Of a DNA stretch of 64,000 bases, positions 82 to 59,425 are shown piece after piece. Position 1 is the first letter of the stretch. Every line of letters begins with the position of its first letter. The notes beneath the pieces are model-generated. The model did no database searches and was not told the origin of the DNA. It worked only from the letters and a program-made list of their open reading frames with translations. The position numbers and the translations under genes were made by a program. The DNA comes from an uncultured Candidatus Micrarchaeota archaeon (lineage in GTDB: Archaea; Micrarchaeota; Micrarchaeia; Anstonellales; Bilamarchaeaceae), in contig CAILMQ010000032.1 of NCBI GenBank assembly GCA_903835385.1, positions 5,976 through 69,975 of the forward strand. Reading direction: 5' to 3'.

Positions 82-1131
82 ATGTATTATTATTGCAAGA
101 AGGCGCGCAAGGGCATGGGCGCCTATTATGCGGTGGTCGGCACCCGCAGCTGGTACAACAAGTACGGGCTTCGCGTCCTGAATCCCGACCCCAGGCCATG
201 GCATGAAACAGCGAAACGGGCCCTCGCGCCTGAAAACAATATGGTTGGGCGCGCGCACCCGGCGATATTCTCCACTGTAATCGGCATGACACACGAATCC
301 CGTATGGGCTGCCCGCAGGAAATGCCCCGTGCGTACATTGCATCCGAATCCACGGGCAGGATAACAAATGGCACGGAGCGCGAAATCCGCGGCCAGATGC
401 ATGGGGGCATGGCAGCAGGCCATTTCAGCTCATTGGTCCCGGCTTTGCTGCACTTCGCGGAATCCGTAGCGCGCGCAGACGAAGCCGGCCGAAGAATCCC
501 CGCTACGGGCAGTGACGTGCCAGCTAATTCGGCAATCGTGTCCGGCGTACTCCGCACCGTGCCCCAGGCTCTGGCCGCCGGGCTCAGGGCCATCAGTTTC
601 CTGCTGCAGGCCGCTGCAAGCAACGGCGCGTCAAAACCGGCCGGGAATGGGATTGCAGCGCGCGCAGCCGGAGCGGCGGCGGAGCGCACGGAACTCCCGT
701 CAAATCCGCAATCACAGCCAGGATACCCAAAAGACAATGCCCCACAGCGACTGCAGCGCGGGATGGGACAAAGCGCACGGGATGTGGCGCAGGAAATTCG
801 CGGTGATGGAGCAACGGCAGGGCCCGCCGTGGATATGAGTGGCACCGCGGCGGACCGCGGGCCCGGTCCGTTGGACGCCGTGCCCGTACCGGCCATTGCG
901 GCTGCGAAAATCAGCACCAGTCGGACCGGATACGTTGCGTTTGTTAGGCCAGAAGGCAGCGTACAAAGCGCGCAAACCGAAACCTCCGTGGCGGCAAGCT
1001 GCCGGATGCCGGAAATGCAGAGTTTGAAGGCCGCGGTAGCGCGCCCTGCTTCCAGTGTTTACATCCCACCCAGAATCCGCGGGAAGGCGTTCCGGCAGAT
1101 GGTTGTCGGTGCCGAGGCATTGCCCGAGTAA
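82..1131 (+). CDS. hypothetical protein, Ala/Gly/Pro-rich, no recognisable domain
   Basis: Long ORF (track 46..1131). The ATG at 82 is preceded by an SD-like GGAAAGGAGG. The antisense ORF 126..917 looks like a high-GC shadow ORF. Confidence 0.4.
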   Translation: MYYYCKKARKGMGAYYAVVGTRSWYNKYGLRVLNPDPRPWHETAKRALAPENNMVGRAHPAIFSTVIGMTHESRMGCPQEMPRAYIASESTGRITNGTEREIRGQMHGGMAAGHFSSLVPALLHFAESVARADEAGRRIPATGSDVPANSAIVSGVLRTVPQALAAGLRAISFLLQAAASNGASKPAGNGIAARAAGAAAERTELPSNPQSQPGYPKDNAPQRLQRGMGQSARDVAQEIRGDGATAGPAVDMSGTAADRGPGPLDAVPVPAIAAAKISTSRTGYVAFVRPEGSVQSAQTETSVAASCRMPEMQSLKAAVARPASSVYIPPRIRGKAFRQMVVGAEALPE

Positions 1132-1136
1132 TTACT

Positions 1137-1745
1137 CTACTTATCAGAAGTCAGGCTGCTCAGTATCTCGTACGCCCTCGCGGTGTCCGCCTCCTTGACC
1201 ACCAGCAGCGTGTCGGTGTAGCATGAGACGAATTCCGCGACGTTTATGCCCTCCTCGGCCAGGGCGTCCAGGATGTGGGCGAGCACGCCCGGCGTGTCCT
1301 CCAGCGAGGGCGGGCTGTGGACGGTTATGAGGTTGAGGTTTGACTCCAGGCGCACCACGGATTTGGAGCGCCCGGCCTTTTCCGCCTCATGCAGGGTGGC
1401 GACATAGGTTATCATGCCGCCGCTCTCGGCATAGGACAGGTATTTTATCCTCTCAAGCTCGCGGGAGCATATTATCACCGCGACCTTGCTCCTTATGGAA
1501 AGCGAGCTGCCGCGCAAAACCGAGAGTATCCTGCCTTCCAGGTCCTCCTCCCTTTCCCGTATCCTGCCCACCATGCGCACCAGGGCCATCTTCACCGCAT
1601 TCGAGCGCCGCTCGTTGCCGAAGGCGTCCCTGGATATCCTCCTGGCGAGGGAGGAGTAGTTGGCTATGCGCTCGCGCAGCATCTCCTTGAGGAAGGGGCG
1701 TTTCTTGACGTAGAGCCACACCAGCTCGGATATGCTTTCCTGCAT
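1137..1745 (-). CDS. ACT-domain protein with helical N-terminal region
   Basis: 202-aa ORF. The C-terminal half (NLITVHSPPSLEDTPGVLAHILDALAEEGINVAEFVSCYTDTLLVV) looks like an ACT fold. Confidence 0.6.
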   Translation of the reverse strand: MQESISELVWLYVKKRPFLKEMLRERIANYSSLARRISRDAFGNERRSNAVKMALVRMVGRIREREEDLEGRILSVLRGSSLSIRSKVAVIICSRELERIKYLSYAESGGMITYVATLHEAEKAGRSKSVVRLESNLNLITVHSPPSLEDTPGVLAHILDALAEEGINVAEFVSCYTDTLLVVKEADTARAYEILSSLTSDK

Positions 1746-10602: not shown

Positions 10603-10837
10603 GGGGATGGATTTGCTAGGGAAGAATTTAAAGCTGTTCTTACAGCCGTATTCCCATTAGTCCGGCGATTCGTCGTGCTCTTACTGTATTCTTAGAATTC
10701 GTCATCTTCGGTTCTTCTCGTGCTCCGAAAGTCACTTGGTGTTTGACTCCTGCCACGAAAGCCTCTCACCGTTTGACTAATGCTCAGCGAGCAGGAGGGT
10801 GTATTCTTAAATAATATTCATCAGACAGTATAGCTGT

Positions 10838-28848: not shown

Positions 28849-28942
28849 GGGCCTGTAGCTCAGCTTGGTAGAGGATGAAATATCCACCAAAAGCGACGGA
28901 CTCTTAATCCGTGTGTCGAGAGTTCAAATCTCTCCAGGCCCG
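28849..28942 (+). tRNA. tRNA-Lys(CTT) with a 20-nt BHB intron in the D-arm (between positions 22 and 23)
   Basis: Exons assemble to GGGCCTG TA GCTC AGCTTGGTA GAGC G ACGGA CTCTTAA TCCGT GTGTC GAGAG TTCAAAT CTCTC CAGGCCC G. Intron 28872..28891. BHB: central helix TGGT/ACCA, 5' bulge AGA, 3' bulge AAA, inner helix GGAT/ATCC. Confidence 0.85.
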
Positions 28943-34095: not shown

Positions 34096-34116
34096 CGCCG
34101 TATGCATACATTATAC

Positions 34117-34369
34117 GGGCTAGAGTGGGGCCAGGGGTCCCAGCACCGCAAATCCCCTTAGGCGGCTCGAATGCCCGGGGCGTTGCCTGTTTCAGTTGCG
34201 CCTCTTTTCCTGAAGCGTAGACGTTCTGCCCTGTGTGGCGGAATGCCTCGTGAACCGGGTCAGGCCGAAAGGAGCAGCCCTAAGCGTTTCATTCCGTGCT
34301 CGCAGGACACAGAATCGAGCAGATGGACTGGAGCTCCACAGCTGTTTCAGCCGGCAAACCGGGAAGCCC
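34117..34369 (+). ncRNA. ffs: signal recognition particle (7S) RNA
   Basis: Helix-8 core GGGTCAGGCCGAAAGGAGCAGCCC with a GAAA tetraloop. Flanking helix-5 pairings: GGAATG/CATTCC, CTGTGT/ACACAG and GCTCGA/TCGAGC. The 5' GGGCT pairs with the 3' AGCCC. The exact ends are uncertain. Confidence 0.75.
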
Positions 34370-34414
34370 ATATTTCGTTAGTCTCCAGTTTTCAGTCTCG
34401 AGTTTTGCCTCAGG

Positions 34415-38198: not shown

Positions 38199-38216
38199 AG
38201 GGCGAGAAATAGCGTG

Positions 38217-38428
38217 ATGAATAATTGCCCGAGTCAAACCCACACTGCCGCCCTCATGTTCGTCGTAACGAACATGGGGCCCTTTGCCCGCTGTGCGGGC
38301 AAATGGGACGTGGCGCAGGTCAAAGTGGCATCCACGTCTCCATTGAAAACAGGAAGAACATGACGATTGGCCGCGCTAATGGGAGAACGTTCAGTCGTAA
38401 CAGCCGGTGCGAAAAGCATGATAGATTT
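38217..38428 (+). repeat. structured intergenic element, copy A (with a 57-nt double-hairpin insertion at 38251..38307)
   Basis: Shares ATGAATAATTG...CACACTGCCG...GACGTGGC.CA.GTCAAA.TGGCATCCACGTCTCC...GAAGAACA..GACGA...ATAGATTT with copy B. Confidence 0.6.
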
Positions 38429-38734: not shown

Positions 38735-38963
38735 TTTTTTTTATGTTTTTCGAATCCGTCTCCCAGCACAAGGAATTTTCCGAAGAAGTCGCAGAACTGA
38801 ATAGGGCTATGGCTAGCCGAAGGCGACAGTAAAAGCATCCGCGAGATAACGATAACGAATAACTGCCATGTGCCCATATTTTTTCAATTAGAGAAACTTA
38901 ATTTGGTCTCGAGGAAAGATTATTATTGGGATAAGGTGCAAACAGAGCATAAGGTGAGGATTT

Positions 38964-39617
38964 GTGAATAGCTATCTGGCTGGCATCGATGAAGCTGGCA
39001 GAGTTTTGTGAAAACAAACTGCAAGCAGCGTCATCGGACCGCTGGTCGTGTGCTCCGCATTTTGCGACCGGAACAACGAAAAGGCGCTCAAGCGCCTGTG
39101 CAGCAAGGACAGCAAGCAGCTCAGCGCCAGGCAGAGGGAGGAGGCGTACTCCGAACTCAAAAAATTCTGCTCTTTCAGGTGGGTGGAAATAAGCGCCGCG
39201 GACCTCAACAGGCTCATGCCTGACATGAGCCTCAACGACATAGAGGCCAAGGCCATGGCAGACCTGTCAAAGCACATCAGGGAAGGCGACCTGATGATAG
39301 ACATGCCGGACCGCTATGCCTGGACATTCAGGAAGCGCATGGAGCGTTTCGGGGCCAACAGGTTCGAGGCCGAGCACAAGGCCGACGAGACCTACCCGAT
39401 AGTGGCGGCCGCCTCCATCTGCGCAAAGCTCACGCGGGACGCGAAAATAGAGCAGATACGGTCCCAGGTGGGCGATTTCGGCTCAGGCTATCCGTCAGAC
39501 CCGAAGACCAGGACCGCGCTCATGGACAAGCCCATGAGGGAGAAGCTGAAGCCTTTCGTAAGGGAGCGCTGGAAGACGCTGGAGAACCTGAAGCAGAGGA
39601 AACTGTTCGAGGAATAG
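38964..39617 (+). CDS. rnhB: ribonuclease HII, interrupted by a 21-nt BHB-type insertion carrying an in-frame TGA
   Basis: GTG 38964 (SD GGTGAGGA) gives MNSYLAGIDEAGR, then VL-stop (TGA 39009..39011). The same frame continues as ...SSVIGPLVVCSAF...DSKQL...HKADETYPIVAAASI.AK..RD...GSGYPSDP. Removing 39004..39024 gives GIDEAGRGSVIGPLVV. Confidence 0.8.
39004..39024 (+). other. candidate BHB intron within the rnhB coding sequence
   Basis: Outer helix 38987-38997/39026-39036 (10 bp, one A.G mismatch). 3' bulge AAG 39023-39025. Central 4-bp helix GCAG/CTGC (38998-39001/39019-39022). 5' bulge AGT 39002-39004. Inner helix TTTG/CAAA. Loop TGAAAA contains the TGA. Confidence 0.65.
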
Positions 39618-39642
39618 GCGCAAGGGCGCGGGCGGGAATGCA

Positions 39643-39918
39643 ATGGCCAAAGTACGCATAAGGAACGAAGGGGTGGAGTTCGAAGTCCCTGACAACGGCC
39701 AGCTCATGCCTTATGCAAAGGAGAAAAGCAACATGCTCTTCGGCTGCGGAAAGGGCGAGTGCGGGACCTGCATCTGTTCGGTCTCAAAGGGCTCTGAGAA
39801 CGTGAATCCCAAGACGCAGCGCGAGGAGCTCACGCTGGCGAAGATGGCCGCCTACCCGACCCAGCGGCTCGCCTGCCAGATTGTAATAAAAAAAGGCGAA
39901 GTGGAGATAGAGTACTAG
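39643..39918 (+). CDS. 2Fe-2S ferredoxin-like protein
   Basis: FGCGKGECGTCIC...LACQ is a plant-type [2Fe-2S] cysteine pattern. Confidence 0.7.
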   Translation: MAKVRIRNEGVEFEVPDNGQLMPYAKEKSNMLFGCGKGECGTCICSVSKGSENVNPKTQREELTLAKMAAYPTQRLACQIVIKKGEVEIEY

Positions 39919-40716: not shown

Positions 40717-41379
40717 ATGGCGCGTGCGGTAGTGTTCGACTTCGACGGCGTGGTCGTGAAGAGCGAGCCGCTGCACTGCCGGACTTTCAGCGAGACGCTC
40801 GCCCCCCTGGGAATACGCATAGACCGGAGGCGCTGGTACAAGGAGTTCGCAGGCACCGGCTCGCACAGCATAATCGCCCGGCTGCTTGAGGAGAACGGAG
40901 TGAAGGCGGATATCGCTGCGCTCGTGAAATCGCGCAAGGAACGCTTCAGCGCCTGCGTGCGCCGGGGCGGGCTCAGGCCGACCAGGGGGCTTCGCAGGTT
41001 CCTGGCAATGATAAGAAAAAAGGGGATAATGACCGCCATAGCTTCGGGTGGGCACAGGGAGAACATCGAGCTCATATTGGGAAAACTCGGGCTGCTGGGG
41101 CAGTTCGATGCCATTGTCGGCTGCGAAGAGGCGAAGAACAGGAAGCCGCATCCGGAGATTTTCCTGAGAGCCGCGGAGCGGCTAGGGGTGCCTCCCGGCC
41201 AGTGCGTTGCCGTGGAGGACTCCATACCCGGCGCGGAATCGGCGAAAAGGGCGGGCATGGCGCTCGTGTGTTTCGATTCCCCGGCGAGCAAGTTTTTAAA
41301 TAACCCGTGCAGCAGAATGATAAACAGCTTCTCGGAGTTCCCGCTTGAGTTGCTGGATGGTTTCCATGATAAGGCTTGA
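40717..41379 (+). CDS. HAD-superfamily hydrolase (beta-phosphoglucomutase-like subfamily IA)
   Basis: VVFDFDGVVV (motif I), TASGG, K...PE.F and VEDS..G..SA..AGM (motif IV). Confidence 0.8.
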   Translation: MARAVVFDFDGVVVKSEPLHCRTFSETLAPLGIRIDRRRWYKEFAGTGSHSIIARLLEENGVKADIAALVKSRKERFSACVRRGGLRPTRGLRRFLAMIRKKGIMTAIASGGHRENIELILGKLGLLGQFDAIVGCEEAKNRKPHPEIFLRAAERLGVPPGQCVAVEDSIPGAESAKRAGMALVCFDSPASKFLNNPCSRMINSFSEFPLELLDGFHDKA

Positions 41380-42535
41380 GCTGGACCGGAAAAAGCGTTC
41401 CGTGAGCGTAAGGGAGCCGGCCGACGTCTCCTCTCTGCAGAACGGCTTCTACGGCCAGATGAAAAAGGGAGTGATAACGCTTTCGCCCGAGGAATCGCTT
41501 TACATAATGGACATACGGAACGGCAGGTGCTACGACGAAACCGGCAACGCCCTCACTTTCAACGGCCTCGCCTCGCTTTTCCTGAAGCAAAGAAAACTGC
41601 TGGCGCGCTATCTCACCTACAAGGACTGGAGGGACAAGGGGTTGATTGCGCGCGACGCAAGTGAGGCAACCGGCAATTACGGAAGGACGGCTATAAAGAA
41701 GTACACCGGCGGCAAGCTGGAACTGGATGCCTATTCGTTCGAGGGCGTGTTCTTCCCCGACGACCTGCTCACGGTGCTGGACGACGAGGTTGTCGGCAGG
41801 GAGCTATACGAGCGGCACTGGATAGGCCAGTTCGGGACCTACAAGGCCGCCCACAGGGGCAGGATAACCAAGCTCGACATCTACGAGACCGTGTTCCTGA
41901 TGAAGCACGGCGGGCTGCGGCTGGCGAACTCGGACCTCAAAAAGGTGGTTTCCGCGGCCTCCAAGCGCCTAAGGTTTTTCGCTGAGATGTACGAGGTCTA
42001 CGAGGACTGGATGAAGCGCGGCTACGTGGTGAAGAGCGGCTTCAAGTTCGGCACGCACTTCAGGATATATTTCCCCGGCGCCTCGCCCGTGCGGCTGGAG
42101 GCCGACTGGATGCACTCCAAGCACGTGCTCCATGTGTTCCCGCGCCGCGCGAAGATGATAATATCCGAATGGGCGCGCGCCATAAGGGTCGCGCACTCGG
42201 TGAAAAAAACGTTCATACTCGCTATTCCTGGCAAGGCCAGGGCGTCCAAAGCGAAGCGCCCTGTGCTGGACTTCCTCCTCTACCACCGCAAGGACGGCGG
42301 CATCGAGACGCCCAAGGACGGAAGCCCGAAATACCTCATGTACTCTCTTACCGAAGACGAGTACATAGGCGGCGAGGAGCTCGCCGGCGCGCTGGACGAG
42401 TGCAGGAAATTCGGCCTTGAGATGATAATGGCGATATCGGATAGGGAATCGTCGGTCACGCAGTACATGATAAGGCGCATCGCGCTTCCCGGAAGCGATT
42501 ACGAATACTTTGAAATTGAGTGGGTTCAGCCATGA
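41366..42535 (+). CDS. endA: tRNA-splicing endonuclease, long multi-unit form
   Basis: About 390 aa, roughly twice the size of a single EndA unit. Catalytic-unit signature GFKFGTHFRIYFPG...HSKHVLHV...HSVKKTFILA. An N-terminal EndA-like unit (YLTYKDWRDKGLIAR) and an extra C-terminal unit. Start ambiguous (41345, 41357 or 41366). Confidence 0.8.
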   Translation: MIRLELDRKKRSVSVREPADVSSLQNGFYGQMKKGVITLSPEESLYIMDIRNGRCYDETGNALTFNGLASLFLKQRKLLARYLTYKDWRDKGLIARDASEATGNYGRTAIKKYTGGKLELDAYSFEGVFFPDDLLTVLDDEVVGRELYERHWIGQFGTYKAAHRGRITKLDIYETVFLMKHGGLRLANSDLKKVVSAASKRLRFFAEMYEVYEDWMKRGYVVKSGFKFGTHFRIYFPGASPVRLEADWMHSKHVLHVFPRRAKMIISEWARAIRVAHSVKKTFILAIPGKARASKAKRPVLDFLLYHRKDGGIETPKDGSPKYLMYSLTEDEYIGGEELAGALDECRKFGLEMIMAISDRESSVTQYMIRRIALPGSDYEYFEIEWVQP

Positions 42536-49531: not shown

Positions 49532-49668
49532 GGGCCTGTAGCTCAGCTCGGTTAGAGCGACGGTCTTATATGGCACGTTCTAATACACGGTTATTAGGAC
49601 GAGTCTGGGCTAGCCGTAGAGGGGTCAAGACCCCGCGGAAGTCCGGAGTTCAAATCTCCGCAGGCCCA
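49532..49668 (+). tRNA. tRNA-Ile(TAT) with two BHB introns (anticodon loop 37/38 and variable loop 45/46)
   Basis: Exons: GGGCCTG TA GCTC AGCTCGGTTA GAGC G ACGGT CTTATAA GCCGT AGGTC CGGAG TTCAAAT CTCCG CAGGCCC A. Introns at 49571..49611 (41 nt) and 49620..49640 (21 nt). The BHB-rule splice sites fix the anticodon as TAT. Confidence 0.8.
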
Positions 49669-51725: not shown

Positions 51726-52703
51726 CTATTCTTCCGCCCGAGGAGGCGTTTGGGGCGTTCCGAACGTCCTCATCTGCATCAGCCTGCTTTTGGTGCCCTG
51801 CTCCCCCATGAGCATCACCATCTCCCTTATCCCTTCGGCAAGCGGCCTCGGGCTGAAGCCGAGCTCTTTTTCCGCCCTGGAGCAGTTGAACTGCCTGTCG
51901 CTGGAAAGCACTGCGATGTCCTCCGGCATGAACTTCGGCTTTGTCTTGGACAGCGATGAGCGGATGGACGACAGCTGCGCCATCAGCGCGGCGAGCGGCA
52001 CCGGCACGTGCTTCCTGGGCGGCTCCACGCCGAGCTCCTTTGCGGCGATTTCATAAACCTCGTTCTGGGTAAGGCACTCGCCCACAAGCACGTAGACGCC
52101 CCTGCCATCGGAAATCGCCGCCCTGATTGCTTGGGCCACGTCTTCCGCATGAACGAACGGGACATGGTTGTTTCCGCTGCCGAGCACGCGCATGCTGCCC
52201 TCCTTGAGCATGCGAAGCACCTTGAAGTACTCCTCGAACCCAGGGCCGTACATGGGGCCTATTCTCAGGATGACGTGGTCCGGCTTTGACGCGATGATTT
52301 TCTCGGCCTGGAGCTTGGTTTTCGCATATGGCGTGTCCGGGCGCGTGGCAGTGCCCTCGTCGGCAGGAATTTGCGCGAGCCGCTTGCCGTAAACCGATAT
52401 GGAACTGGCGAAGATTATGCGGGCCGTGGGAGGAATCGCGGTGGCCAGCCTCTGGGTGAGTATGACGTTGCCCTCGCGTGCCTTTTCCATGTCCAGGAAA
52501 TCGCGTGATGCCGCCAGATGTATGACCACGTCGGCATTCCGGAGCATGCGCTCCAGGTCGTGGAAGGAATAGTCGGTGACAATCTCGCCCTTGAGCCCCG
52601 ATGGCTTCCGCACCAGTGGGACGGCTTCAGGAACCTGCTTCAGCACTTCCCTTCCGAGCCTGCCCGAGGCTCCGGTGATGTATATGTTCTTCCCTGCCAT
52701 CAT
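51726..52703 (-). CDS. NAD-dependent epimerase/dehydratase (extended SDR)
   Basis: IYITGASGRLG Rossmann motif and a YAKTK active-site motif (YxxxK). Confidence 0.8.
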   Translation of the reverse strand: MMAGKNIYITGASGRLGREVLKQVPEAVPLVRKPSGLKGEIVTDYSFHDLERMLRNADVVIHLAASRDFLDMEKAREGNVILTQRLATAIPPTARIIFASSISVYGKRLAQIPADEGTATRPDTPYAKTKLQAEKIIASKPDHVILRIGPMYGPGFEEYFKVLRMLKEGSMRVLGSGNNHVPFVHAEDVAQAIRAAISDGRGVYVLVGECLTQNEVYEIAAKELGVEPPRKHVPVPLAALMAQLSSIRSSLSKTKPKFMPEDIAVLSSDRQFNCSRAEKELGFSPRPLAEGIREMVMLMGEQGTKSRLMQMRTFGTPQTPPRAEE

Positions 52704-54292
52704 TTACGCCCCATTTCCATGATTCTTTTGTCCAGCTGCTTCTCGGCCTCGAGCCGCTCGAACTCGTAATCGTTCATGTCCACGAATTTCATGTGCCTGG
52801 CAAGCGAGGGGTGCACGCGCTTGATTTCCCCATACATCCCCTGCGCCACCCTCCGGTAATCGATGTGCCCCTGCCTGGCGGAGCGCAGCTCGCAGAACTG
52901 GAACGCCTCGCGCAGCGAGAGCGCCATCTGCCACCTTATGCGGTAGGCGAGCGGGACCGCGTATTGCGCCTCGTGCGGATATGTTTTTGCCATTGCACCC
53001 CAGGCGTTCTTCGCAGCTTCCATGGCGTTGCGGAACTCGCCTTCATGGCCGGAGTCCACGATTTCTTTCGGAAGCGTGTAGCCGTGCAGGCAGCCCAGCT
53101 GCTGCCTCTGCTGGGTGAGCATCCTGTGCCTGTGGATGTCGCGGTAGCATCCGAAGTTCGCGCAGATGTCGAACGTGTACCTTGCGGATTCGAAGCCCCG
53201 GCCAGGCTTGTGCCTGCGGTTGATCCGGTTGCCACAGTAGGAGGAGATTATTTTATTGCGCTGGTCTTGGGTCATGCGTCTTGAGTCTTGGATAAGCGTT
53301 GCCATGGAACTATGAGTGAATGGGTAAAGGGCGGCTGCGACCACGCGCTCTTCCGCGTCCCGCTCGTAATCCACCAGAACGACGTCTTCCGCATCCGGCT
53401 CGGCCTTGAATCCGGAGCCGATTTTGTCGAGCCTCGTTTCCTTTATGTAATTCTGCATGATTAGCCCGAGCTCGGTGTCGGGCCGCTTCACGAACGACGG
53501 AATCGTGGTCCTGAGTTCCGCCTGCATGGATGCCGCGAGCGCCCTGGTTTCCGGGAGCGGGTCCGCGTACATTTTGGTTATCAGGTATTCGTACGCCCTC
53601 CCGTTCCCGAAGAAGCCCATGTTGGTCTTCGTGGAAGCCGGAAGCAGGCCGCGGATGATGTCGCAGGTCTTGGAGCGCACAATCGCCTCAACCGCCCTTT
53701 CGCTCAGGCCCTTTTTCTCGTCTTCGCCCAGGCGCTCGGAAACGTATTTCGAGATTTTCGGTATGAGCTTGGCGTAGGTTTCGAAAAGCAGGTCGCATGT
53801 CTCCACGTAGCCGCCGAGCGCCTCCAGTTGCGCGTCGCAATAGTATTTCCACTTTCCGTCCGCGCCCTTCTGGTCGAAATAGACGTAGCGCGTGGATTTC
53901 TCAAGAGGCGAGAGGCCGATGCGCGCGTCCTCCAGGACCTTGGTCGCGATTATGGAGATGCCCTCCAGTGCGATGTGCGCGCCGGCCAGCTCTGCCACGG
54001 AATCGTCGCCGTAGCCGAGCAGCACGCGGTCGTAGAACGCCTCGGCTTTCTCGGTTGCCACGAGGCCCTCGAACCCGCCTCCGGACGCGCTCCCCGCGTC
54101 GAAACCGATTTCCTTGTTTTTTATGAACTCGTCCAGCAGCGTGCGCCTGAGGCTCTTGGCTGAGCGCGAATAACGTGAAAATAGCGCGCCCTTCACCACC
54201 TCGGGCAGGTTCCGCAGCACGAACACCGGCCGCTCGAGGTTGGATACGAAGGGGGCGAGGAGCCTTTTCTCCTCCTCAGAGAATTCTTCCAT
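52700..54292 (-). CDS. ThyX-like (Thy1 family) protein, long ~530-aa form
   Basis: The C-terminal half has YRDIHRHRMLTQQRQ, resembling the ThyX RHR motif, but the following Ser/Tyr positions differ. Confidence 0.55.
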   Translation of the reverse strand: MEEFSEEEKRLLAPFVSNLERPVFVLRNLPEVVKGALFSRYSRSAKSLRRTLLDEFIKNKEIGFDAGSASGGGFEGLVATEKAEAFYDRVLLGYGDDSVAELAGAHIALEGISIIATKVLEDARIGLSPLEKSTRYVYFDQKGADGKWKYYCDAQLEALGGYVETCDLLFETYAKLIPKISKYVSERLGEDEKKGLSERAVEAIVRSKTCDIIRGLLPASTKTNMGFFGNGRAYEYLITKMYADPLPETRALAASMQAELRTTIPSFVKRPDTELGLIMQNYIKETRLDKIGSGFKAEPDAEDVVLVDYERDAEERVVAAALYPFTHSSMATLIQDSRRMTQDQRNKIISSYCGNRINRRHKPGRGFESARYTFDICANFGCYRDIHRHRMLTQQRQQLGCLHGYTLPKEIVDSGHEGEFRNAMEAAKNAWGAMAKTYPHEAQYAVPLAYRIRWQMALSLREAFQFCELRSARQGHIDYRRVAQGMYGEIKRVHPSLARHMKFVDMNDYEFERLEAEKQLDKRIMEMGRK

Positions 54293-59262: not shown

Positions 59263-59425
59263 ATGAATAATTGTCTGGTTCAACCATCACACTGCCGACG
59301 TGGCTCAAGTCAAACTGGCATCCACGTCTCCTTAGAATACCGAAAGAACACAATGACGAACCGCACGATTGAGAATCCATTTGTTCACAGCAAGCGCTTT
59401 CTCGGGCAAGAGTTTAATAGATTTG
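59263..59425 (+). repeat. structured intergenic element, copy B
   Basis: Same ordered blocks as copy A, including a conserved 7-bp stem ACGTGG(C)/CCACGT around an 18-nt loop. Confidence 0.6.

Follow-up and report, generated by a model that had tools for sequence, protein, structure and literature searches.

The stretch of DNA analyzed here, designated the window, comprises 64,000 nucleotides (nt) of contig CAILMQ010000032.1 (positions 5,976 to 69,975; assembly GCA_903835385.1) from an uncultured Candidatus Micrarchaeota archaeon. Homologues of its RNase HII likewise point to the Micrarchaeota, which are ultrasmall archaea of the DPANN. The window contains on the plus strand the gene rnhB for ribonuclease HII (RNase HII), which very probably is interrupted by a 21-nt archaeal bulge-helix-bulge (BHB) intron; this intron would be spliced out by the RNA splicing endonuclease EndA and the exons ligated to a message that encodes RNase HII. 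The gene for EndA is located downstream of rnhB, and the remnant of a gene for a LAGLIDADG endonuclease precedes rnhB directly. An origin of the intron and of this endonuclease gene as two halves of one mobile element was also considered.

Sequence and predicted fold of the rnhB insert

Exon 1 of rnhB (38964 to 39003, plus strand) starts with GTG and encodes MNSYLAGIDEAGR plus the first base of a Gly codon. From position 38964, the plus strand reads GTG AAT AGC TAT CTG GCT GGC ATC GAT GAA GCT GGC AGA GTT TTG TGA, which is MNSYLAGIDEAGRVL followed by a stop. The unspliced frame is MNSYLAGIDEAGR-V-L-TGA, with the in-frame TGA at 39009 to 39011, and continues in the same frame with KQTASSVIGPLVV up to the stop codon at 39615 to 39617. 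When its bounds are set by a cut after the second nucleotide of each bulge, the predicted intron, TTTTGTGAAAACAAACTGCAA, occupies positions 39004 to 39024 of the plus strand. Exon 2 (39025 to 39617, plus strand), assigned by its reading frame and by the ratio of nonsynonymous to synonymous substitution rates (dN/dS), begins with GC AGC GTC ATC and ends with the TAG stop. A Shine-Dalgarno-like sequence, GGTGAGG, is located at 38953 to 38959 on the plus strand, four bases 5' of the GTG start and within the last codons of the endonuclease remnant.

The insert and its flanks form a BHB motif with helices on both sides (hBHBh') between 38987 and 39036 of the plus strand. In the outer helix, 38987 to 38997 pair with 39026 to 39036 by 10 pairs with one A.G mismatch, followed by a 4-bp central helix of GCAG (38998 to 39001) and CTGC (39019 to 39022). 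The bulges of 3 nt each are on opposite strands, AGT (39002 to 39004) at the 5' side and AAG (39023 to 39025) at the 3' side, and an inner helix, TTTGT/ACAAA, connects 39005 to 39009 with 39014 to 39018. RNAfold of the region 38980 to 39045 returned this motif as the minimum-free-energy (MFE) structure and as the centroid (−25.3 kcal/mol, z = −3.3, with 1 of 200 shuffles equally good), and the helices are kept by compensatory changes among homologues. A preliminary description of the locus had given coordinates, helices, bulges, and TGA in this form and had proposed RNA folding as a check; direct reading of the sequence and both predicted structures agree with it.

Deletion of positions 39004 to 39024 in silico yielded an in-frame product of 210 amino acids (aa) containing GIDEAGRGSVIGP (DEAGRG-S-VIGP), which matched the Pfam family RNase_HII over positions 1 to 198 of 199 (E = 2e-44). 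Cutting after the second bulge nucleotide had been expected to restore the conserved Gly, the spacing, and the frame, and the full-length match upheld this expectation. One single register of the window insert is compatible with the protein, and it is the same register that forms the BHB motif.

In the pre-mRNA, the exon codons GAU GAA GCU G would pair with C AGC GUC AUC as the outer helix, and GCAG of exon 1 with CUGC at the 3' end of the intron as the central helix, with the bulges AGU and AAG on either side. The EndA of the host, an enzyme of the epsilon2 type, would cut both bulges after the second nucleotide. An RtcB-type ligase joins exons in archaeal splicing, and such an enzyme would then seal AGAG to GCAGC, leading to the predicted junction of GCTGGCAGAG with GCAGCGTCATC and to an mRNA for a normal RNase HII of 210 aa. 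Translation of the unspliced RNA would end at the TGA after 15 codons. Cleavage, ligation, and the identity of the ligase are the predicted part of this model.

A group I or group II self-splicing intron was rejected as a candidate because the insert has only 21 nt, compared to a ribozyme core of hundreds of nucleotides, and there was no Rfam match to such an intron in the window at the gathering threshold or at E <= 0.05. A second copy of the intron with its flanks was not present elsewhere in the window, so that there was no sign of an origin from a local tRNA intron. A search of the whole window for BHB motifs joining two open reading frames (ORFs) gave 1215 matches, which were mostly ordinary neighboring genes with their own starts; such matches are not informative unless supported by homology, and no second split gene was identified.

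Inserts at the same codon in related rnhB genes

The closest relatives of the window gene at the amino acid level, in the loci L001 (89%) and L003 (90%), possess an uninterrupted rnhB that is exactly 21 nt shorter at the intron site and reads GAT GAA GCx GGC CGC GGT TCG GTA ATC. Locus L003 belongs to a Micrarchaeota chromosome that is complete (1.57 Mb). Of 24 Micrarchaeota loci of the GTDB, 5 had an insert at this rnhB codon, and so did seven distinct rnhB loci on metagenome contigs. The latter were collected by a pattern scan for exon flanks 20 to 50 nt apart, which selects insertions by design but not their structure or the surrounding frames. Among the loci reached through the endonuclease gene upstream, seven of eight carried an insert in rnhB. 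This adds up to 19 distinct rnhB inserts, including that of the window, in several DPANN lineages. A comparison with rnhB of related genomes had been suggested as a check in the preliminary description, and it led to the 21 nt being absent in the two closest relatives and to inserts at this codon in 18 other DPANN genes.

The 19 inserts are 17, 20, 20, 21, 21, 21, 29, 29, 30, 31, 31, 32, 33, 37, 37, 39, 42, 52, and 73 nt long. Twelve of them are not a multiple of 3, and many contain several stop codons of different kinds (TAA, TAG, and TGA), which means that these genes would be untranslatable unless the insert is removed. The recurrence of the inserts, their non-triplet lengths, and the multiple stops therefore speak against read-through or recoding as well as against an assembly error. 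Translation of the insert, with the TGA being read through or recoded (as selenocysteine, Trp, or Gly) or bypassed by a programmed frameshift, would place seven extra residues into the DEAGRG box. The insert of the window, with its length divisible by three and its one TGA, would agree with such an event, and the introns of the crenarchaeal gene cbf5 were once mistaken for frameshifting (PMC2738675). The extra residues would, however, separate the catalytic Asp-Glu from the conserved Gly, the inserts are conserved as helices and not as protein, at least two different stops occur in many of them, and ordinary stops terminate other ORFs of the window, whose Pfam matches require no TGA as a sense codon. 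Recoding is thus hardly conceivable.

All 19 loci have a short exon 1 that ends with DEAG(R/K) and possesses its own start codon, a Shine-Dalgarno-like signal, and a frame open to the 5' cut. This needs to be considered with respect to the possibility that only the downstream ORF of the window gene (GTG at 39048, 189 aa) is expressed as an N-terminally truncated RNase HII-like protein, with exon 1 as a relic. Products truncated in this way are indeed annotated by gene callers in the genomes of relatives (196, 201, 202, 145, and 135 aa). The truncated product would be without the DEAGRG box and its catalytic Asp, and the synonymous choices in the exon 1 sequences, open and in frame to the 5' splice site as they are, are limited to those that allow pairing with exon 2 and intron, making expression of the downstream ORF alone very improbable. 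The helix-forming codons GAT GAA GCT GGC AGA G and GC AGC GTC ATC are common to the intron-bearing genes, whereas intronless genes vary freely at these positions.

In a tree of RNase HII, the intron-bearing genes were scattered, each with intronless sisters. The introns and helix-forming flanks of the window and of four other loci, L022, L023, L031, and L033, are nearly identical, although the respective RNase HII proteins share only 64 to 75% identity. Exon 2 of the window gene displayed a dN/dS of 0.10 to 0.13 in comparison to intronless orthologues, and there was no other lesion in the gene. Judged by these values, the rnhB of the window is a living gene that is not decaying.

A pseudogene, or 21 nt coming from an artefact of assembly or sequencing, with a fold that is a coincidence, would be in agreement with the in-frame TGA and with the missing insert in the closest relatives. 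Loose BHB motifs are common by chance, and the site is covered by one assembly of this exact organism. A second contig of the same organism, L002 (ENA BUCK21 scaffold_215900), which is 100% identical downstream, diverges 149 nt before the intron is reached and gave no independent confirmation. Against such an origin stand 18 other assemblies from different samples and lineages with an insert at the same codon, intact exons, and a BHB motif in the protein-restoring register, in addition to the dN/dS and the absence of a further lesion in the window gene. The probability of the motif occurring in the required register by chance is about 2e-5, or 2.6e-2 for the central helix alone. An artefact or a pseudogene is consequently highly unlikely.

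Contig L002 is 99.8% identical to positions 39155 to 39694 of the window and begins with 149 nt that show no relation to the window. The contig may be a chimeric assembly or a rearranged variant without the 5' part of rnhB.

The inserts occur in two phases. In most of the Micrarchaeota, including the window, the intron splits the Gly codon behind its first base (AGAG-intron-G). In L034 and in the Aenigmarchaeota, Diapherotrites, Nanoarchaeota-type, and other loci (L039 and L041 to L045), it is located at a distance of 2 nt, behind the AG of the Arg/Lys codon (AG-intron-AGG). This suggests either sliding of the intron or insertion on separate occasions by endonuclease lineages whose cut sites are shifted.

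Structure and covariation across the inserts

All registers of the inserts were listed with a cut after the second bulge base and the requirement that the product regains the pattern D[ED][AT]G[RK]G-x-[VLIF]..G. A single compatible register existed in 11 of 18 tabulated genes. In the protein-restoring register, a central helix with four of four pairs between 3-nt bulges was present in 16 of the 18 tabulated genes, or 17 of 19 with L045 included, while arbitrary registers taken from these sequences had such a helix in only 2.6% of cases. At least nine kinds of central helices were found (GCAG/CTGC, GCAG/CTGT, AGGC/GCCT, TGGA/TCCA, GGGA/TCCT, CGGT/GCCG, CGGT/ACCG, TGGG/CCCA, and GGGT/GCCC). The inner helices are nearly all different yet paired, for instance, TCTGT/ACAGA in L022, TCTGC/GCAGG in L031, AGATG/CATCT in L039, and GGGGT/GCCCC in L041.

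For group B, six sequences of mostly non-Micrarchaeota type, central and inner helices were 100% paired with double changes being present, and the covariation score of 0.537, compared to 0.151 in shuffles, was reached by none of 500 shuffles. In group A, which contained 12 Micrarchaeota-type sequences, 85.6% of the cells were paired; the covariation score was 0.244 compared to 0.132, again reached by none of 500 shuffles. The insert sequences are thus conserved as helices but not as protein.

Splicing endonuclease, ligase, and tRNA introns of the window

The gene for the predicted splicing enzyme, a three-unit EndA of the epsilon2 type, is located at 41345 to 42535 on the plus strand (likely start ATG 41366; Pfam tRNA_int_endo, PF01974, and tRNA_int_endo_N, PF02778), 2.3 kb downstream of the rnhB intron. 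Its product matched the epsilon2 EndA of ARMAN-2 (PDB 4fz2 and 9w2k) over the full length (residues 10 to 396, E = 2.4e-135), in agreement with the earlier statement that a splicing endonuclease of the broad-specificity type is encoded about 2 kb away. To our knowledge, the natural substrates known so far of the epsilon2 endonuclease are tRNAs only. Enzymes of this type possess a broad substrate specificity (PMC12397907, PMC6379350) and reportedly also accept relaxed BHB motifs.

ARAGORN with default settings detected no tRNA in the window. In the intron mode, it recognized three, one of them doubtful, and Rfam and ARAGORN together indicated two or three tRNA genes. The gene for tRNA-Ile(TAT) (49532 to 49668, 137 nt) contains a BHB intron at 49571 to 49611 (41 nt, central helix CTTA/TGGG). 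After removal of 49571 to 49611 by the same cut rule, the tRNA was recognized by ARAGORN but still had 96 nt, and a second intron is likely around 49620 to 49645. It had been claimed before that the cut rule reproduces eight tRNA introns in the window. The rule does fit the intron in the tRNA-Ile gene; eight introns were not confirmed, as two or three tRNA genes were recognized.

The gene for tRNA-Lys(CTT) (28849 to 28942, 94 nt) has an insert of about 20 to 21 nt after the D-arm, GATGAAATATCCACCAAAAG, between GGTAGAG and CGACGG, which is a non-canonical position. A strict BHB search of this insert recovered no motif, and its motif is probably relaxed.

Evaluation of the splicing model

Evaluation of the importance of the BHB motif in rnhB needs to consider a number of points that weigh against splicing. 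First, loose BHB motifs, searched for on both strands with 4 central, at least 4 outer, and at least 3 inner pairs, G.U pairs being allowed, and a span of 12 to 120 nt, were found 305 times in the window and on average 310 times (range, 281 to 340) in 20 Markov shuffles. The BHB scan proposed in the preliminary description thus showed that the motif by itself is not statistically unusual. A bare motif is not rare, and the case rests on the comparison with the relatives. For any one given pair of cut sites, the rate of the loose scan amounts to about 2e-5. Second, GAUGA of the Asp-Glu codons pairs with UCAUC of the Val-Ile codons, so that about half of the outer helix comes for free from conserved residues. 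Third, pairing served as a tie-breaker where several registers fitted in the alignments used for counting pairs, and many Micrarchaeota-type sequences share their helices by descent and are not independent events. Fourth, only three of the four central pairs exist in L013 and L032, and an inner helix directly beside the bulge is missing in L027 and L038; all four would need an enzyme that accepts relaxed motifs. Finally, no RtcB was present among the eight largest ORFs of the window, and the evidence for splicing is sequence inference throughout.

The LAGLIDADG endonuclease gene upstream of rnhB

The region directly upstream of rnhB (38743 to 38971, plus strand) contains the degraded remnant of a gene for an I-DmoI-like LAGLIDADG and winged-helix endonuclease, which was identified by BLASTP and tblastn with the intact homologue P0121 and which the preliminary description had overlooked. 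About 230 nt between the stop of a PRC-barrel gene (38734) and the rnhB start translate, with one frameshift, as MFFESVSQHKEFSEEVAEL-IGLWLAEGDSKSIREITITNNC...LNLVSRKDYYWDKVQTEHKVRICE followed by a stop. The N-terminal motif AELIGLWLAEGD has become fused to the last approximately 25 codons, with the frameshift near 38800 and a deletion of about 270 codons. The remnant corresponds to residues 24 to 65 (71% identity) and 319 to 361 of P0121, and its TAG stop (38969 to 38971) overlaps the GTG start of rnhB. With only motif 1 and the C-terminal tail being kept, the copy in the window is, as read from its sequence, a remnant and not a working member of the family.

An intact ORF of 340 to 365 aa with the motifs GLWLAEGD and GFFAGEGN and a C-terminal extension exists at the same position in L013, L022, L031, and L029. 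The catalytic Glu residues of both motifs are conserved in the intact homologues (E38 invariant, E147 at least 90%), and these proteins scored 29.1 bits (cutoff, 22.5) for the Pfam family LAGLIDADG_3. A sequence search of the homologue against the PDB resulted in no match. An AlphaFold2 model built with 42 homologues (predicted local distance difference test score, 91.5) had I-DmoI as best match in Foldseek (E = 2e-6, template modeling score of about 0.6 on the target), with I-Tsp061I, the bI3 maturase, and PI-SceI among the best, and its tail resembled tandem winged-helix domains. By their two motifs and the modeled double-domain fold (alpha-beta-beta-alpha-beta-beta-alpha), the intact homologues belong to the LAGLIDADG endonucleases, with a predicted site-specific cleavage of DNA. 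The family is small and DPANN specific, with 221 close homologues, all without names; clustering at 50% gave 383 representatives, which are fragments in many cases. It keeps its length and 41 to 59% identity across phyla.

The codons for the conserved C-terminal K-E-V (AAA GAG GTG) double as the Shine-Dalgarno sequence of rnhB, a few bases ahead of its start, in L038, L039, L042, L044, and L045, with GAGGTG as the equivalent of GGTGAGG in the window, and the inserted gene therefore brings along a replacement translation signal for the rnhB gene of the host. The endonuclease ORF as a BHB intron itself was rejected after a search in 10 loci, which gave only weak, non-conserved chance matches; since there was no conserved long-range BHB motif around this ORF, the gene was treated as free-standing. 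Locus L044 possesses a second, unrelated ORF of the LAGLIDADG_1 family (1048 to 1422, minus strand, 124 aa), which is on the strand opposite to the rnhB-associated endonuclease gene and directly upstream of it.

Linkage of the endonuclease gene with the intron

In all eight cases that were looked up, the homologues of the endonuclease gene were positioned directly upstream of an RNase HII gene, which contained the intron in the seven cases counted above. The eight loci are from metagenome-assembled genomes (MAGs) labeled as Micrarchaeota, Aenigmarchaeota, Pacearchaeota, Diapherotrites, Nanoarchaeota, and "Euryarchaeota" and from two unlabeled metagenome contigs. When loci were ascertained through rnhB instead, the endonuclease gene or a remnant was present in 6 of 12 intron-bearing but in 0 of 20 intronless loci (Fisher p of about 0.001).

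A comparison with L003 by blastn revealed a block of 280 nt on the plus strand (38750 to 39029) composed of the endonuclease remnant, exon 1, the intron, and 5 nt of exon 2. It replaces 38 nt of L003 (3008 to 3045) between colinear flanks of 82 to 96% identity, with breaks at 38749/38750 and 39029/39030, so that the right-hand end of the block is 5 nt past the intron. Adjacency and co-inheritance, as expected for collaborative homing, are seen in the counts of 6 of 12 compared to 0 of 20, in the 7 of 8, and in this replacement of a block.

There is about an even chance that the mini-intron in rnhB makes up half of a composite mobile element, one that spread through the DPANN by collaborative homing with a protein-spliced intron. 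According to this proposal, a free-standing LAGLIDADG gene inserted at the start codon of rnhB, with its last codons providing the new ribosome-binding site. The endonuclease would cleave intronless rnhB alleles within the DNA coding for DEAGRG, and the BHB intron would split the target and shield its carriers. Gene conversion after cleavage would copy the endonuclease gene, the recoded exon 1, and the intron together. Later, the endonuclease gene would decay, as in the window, leading to an orphan intron. Linkage, block structure, and distribution are the basis of this equally balanced claim, with cleavage by the enzyme and protection of the target as its predicted components.

Two observations weigh against homing. 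In L040 (2501 to 4197; Pacearchaeota MAG NZCQ01000007.1), an intact endonuclease homologue is followed by an intronless rnhB (LGLDDAGRGPIIGAM), with both ORFs overlapping in different frames. Moreover, six intron-bearing loci, L021, L023, L027, L032, L033, and L035, are without the endonuclease gene. Both would be understandable if splicing does occur but the intron has been passed on vertically since ancient times and was precisely lost on many occasions, with the LAGLIDADG gene being an independent selfish insertion or a domesticated DNA-binding protein that is merely linked to it. The 2-nt shift of the insertion between two groups of lineages would fit such long independent histories, as would the length and identity maintained by the endonuclease family across phyla. 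On the other hand, the block was swapped in one piece in comparison to a 90%-identical relative; introns and flanks are near-identical among hosts with diverged RNase HII proteins, each of them having an intronless sister; the endonuclease gene was not found beside any of the 20 intronless Micrarchaeota rnhB genes; the catalytic Glu is kept in both LAGLIDADG motifs; and many members of the family are fragments, as for a selfish gene in decay. An old intron with a merely linked endonuclease gene is nevertheless a serious possibility, somewhat short of an even chance.

Other features of the window

The otherwise colinear L003 lacks an intergenic segment of 206 nt (38205 to 38410) by which the PRC-barrel gene is separated from a DNA polymerase small-subunit-like gene. 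Partial repeats of this segment are located at 59297 to 59359 (82.5%, E = 2e-12) and at 10652 to 10691 (80%, opposite strand), and several hairpins are predicted in it (z = −2.35). The segment may represent a repeated or mobile element of small size or belong to a family of small RNAs. A signal recognition particle (SRP) RNA at 34113 to 34373 scored 77.6 bits, compared to an archaeal gathering cutoff of 96.5, and was above the cutoff for the bacterial large SRP RNA; by its sequence, it is a divergent DPANN SRP RNA. An ORF of 530 aa at 52703 to 54292 (minus strand) with two separate ThyX (Thy1) domain matches has about double the usual length, suggestive of a tandem duplication or a fusion of ThyX.

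Significance and comparison with known systems

If spliced as predicted, rnhB would be the second gene family with a coding sequence that requires splicing by the archaeal endonuclease, in a different superphylum from that of cbf5, and the intron would occur in about a fifth of the sampled Micrarchaeota species plus several other DPANN lineages. For annotation, this would mean that gene callers report an intron-bearing rnhB as N-terminally truncated without the catalytic box, so that RNase HII looks defective or missing in reconstructions of DPANN. Introns of 17 to 21 nt would be near the smallest possible BHB substrates. Should homing be true, it would offer a concrete route at the DNA level for BHB introns into protein-coding genes, and the tie to the endonuclease makes testable the gain of BHB introns at the DNA level and their possible protective role against the endonuclease.

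No report on introns in rnhB or in mRNAs of Micrarchaeota or DPANN was found in the literature, and none on free-standing archaeal LAGLIDADG genes beside introns; most papers in subscription journals were outside the coverage of both searches, and this absence is not a proof. In the literature covered, cbf5 is the sole case of a BHB intron in a coding sequence, with HVO_1309 of Haloferax volcanii as a 5' untranslated region (UTR) case (PMC2738675, PMC7714728, PMC10485636). The preliminary description had named only cbf5 as the established precedent, with which the literature agrees apart from adding the HVO_1309 intron (PMC10485636, PMC7714728). Reviews and the 2025 paper on the structure of the ARMAN-2 EndA contained no coding or mRNA case beyond these two, although further archaeal mRNA introns probably exist according to reviews (PMC10485636). 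The rnhB intron by itself belongs to the known BHB kind; what is new is a protein-spliced mini-intron paired with a free-standing homing endonuclease.

The pre-mRNA of cbf5 in Crenarchaeota (Aeropyrum, Sulfolobus) contains a BHB-type intron in the coding sequence with a patchy distribution due to gain and loss (PMC2738675). As in cbf5, the rnhB insert is located inside a coding sequence and disrupts the frame, intronless orthologues exist, and the EndA of the host is of the broad-specificity type; where the host has such an enzyme, the tRNA splicing endonuclease removes the cbf5 intron. The cbf5 intron has reportedly been studied by Watanabe 2002 and Yoshinari 2006 and is treated in Yokobori 2009 (PMC2738675). 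Unlike in cbf5, the intron in rnhB is in the DEAGRG box of RNase HII, in the DPANN superphylum, and together with an epsilon2 rather than an (alpha-beta)2 enzyme. The motif in the window is strict and not relaxed, the intron is very short (17 to 21 nt in several lineages) and neighbors a homing-endonuclease gene, and it is known from the DNA sequence alone. [quoted passage not shown] The intron of HVO_1309 is likewise an mRNA substrate of the archaeal splicing endonuclease outside of tRNA and rRNA but is located in the 5' UTR, with an uninterrupted reading frame (PMC7714728, PMC10485636).

With the BHB introns of archaeal tRNAs, including the tRNA-Ile of the window, the rnhB intron shares the 3-nt bulges, the 4-bp helix, the cut rule, and presumably EndA and the ligase. 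In contrast to tRNA introns, its outer and central helices are built from choices at synonymous sites, and the product is a protein frame and not a tRNA fold. The BHB introns of archaeal rRNA genes encode LAGLIDADG endonucleases such as I-DmoI, I-Tsp061I, and I-PorI, so that a BHB intron is combined with an I-DmoI-like two-domain LAGLIDADG enzyme in both systems. In rnhB, however, the endonuclease ORF is free-standing upstream of exon 1, encodes two additional C-terminal winged-helix domains, and is associated with a protein-coding host gene.

The unconventional splicing of HAC1 and XBP1 uses IRE1 and RtcB, and the XBP1 intron has 26 nt. Similar to rnhB, this is a very short, structure-defined intron for which a protein endonuclease makes the cuts and an RtcB-type ligase does the sealing, with a change in the coding of the mRNA. 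The nuclease IRE1, the motif of twin stem-loops, and the regulatory function in eukaryotes are different, and no evidence for a regulation of rnhB splicing was obtained here.

Collaborative homing of F-CphI and psbA is said to have been described by Zeng, Bonocora and Shub 2009. The gene for the free-standing F-CphI is located beside an intron-containing psbA in cyanophage S-PM2 (PMC6083498), and mobE/I-TevIII in phage T4 is a further case (PMC2790892). As in F-CphI/psbA, the endonuclease gene at rnhB adjoins an intron without an ORF in a conserved gene. In both phage systems, the intron interrupts the target of the enzyme, and both components move by gene conversion, whereas the specificity of the rnhB endonuclease is a prediction. 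In the phage cases, group I self-splicing introns are combined with enzymes of the Endo VII or HNH kind; the rnhB intron would be a protein-spliced BHB intron in a cellular archaeal host, associated with a LAGLIDADG enzyme.

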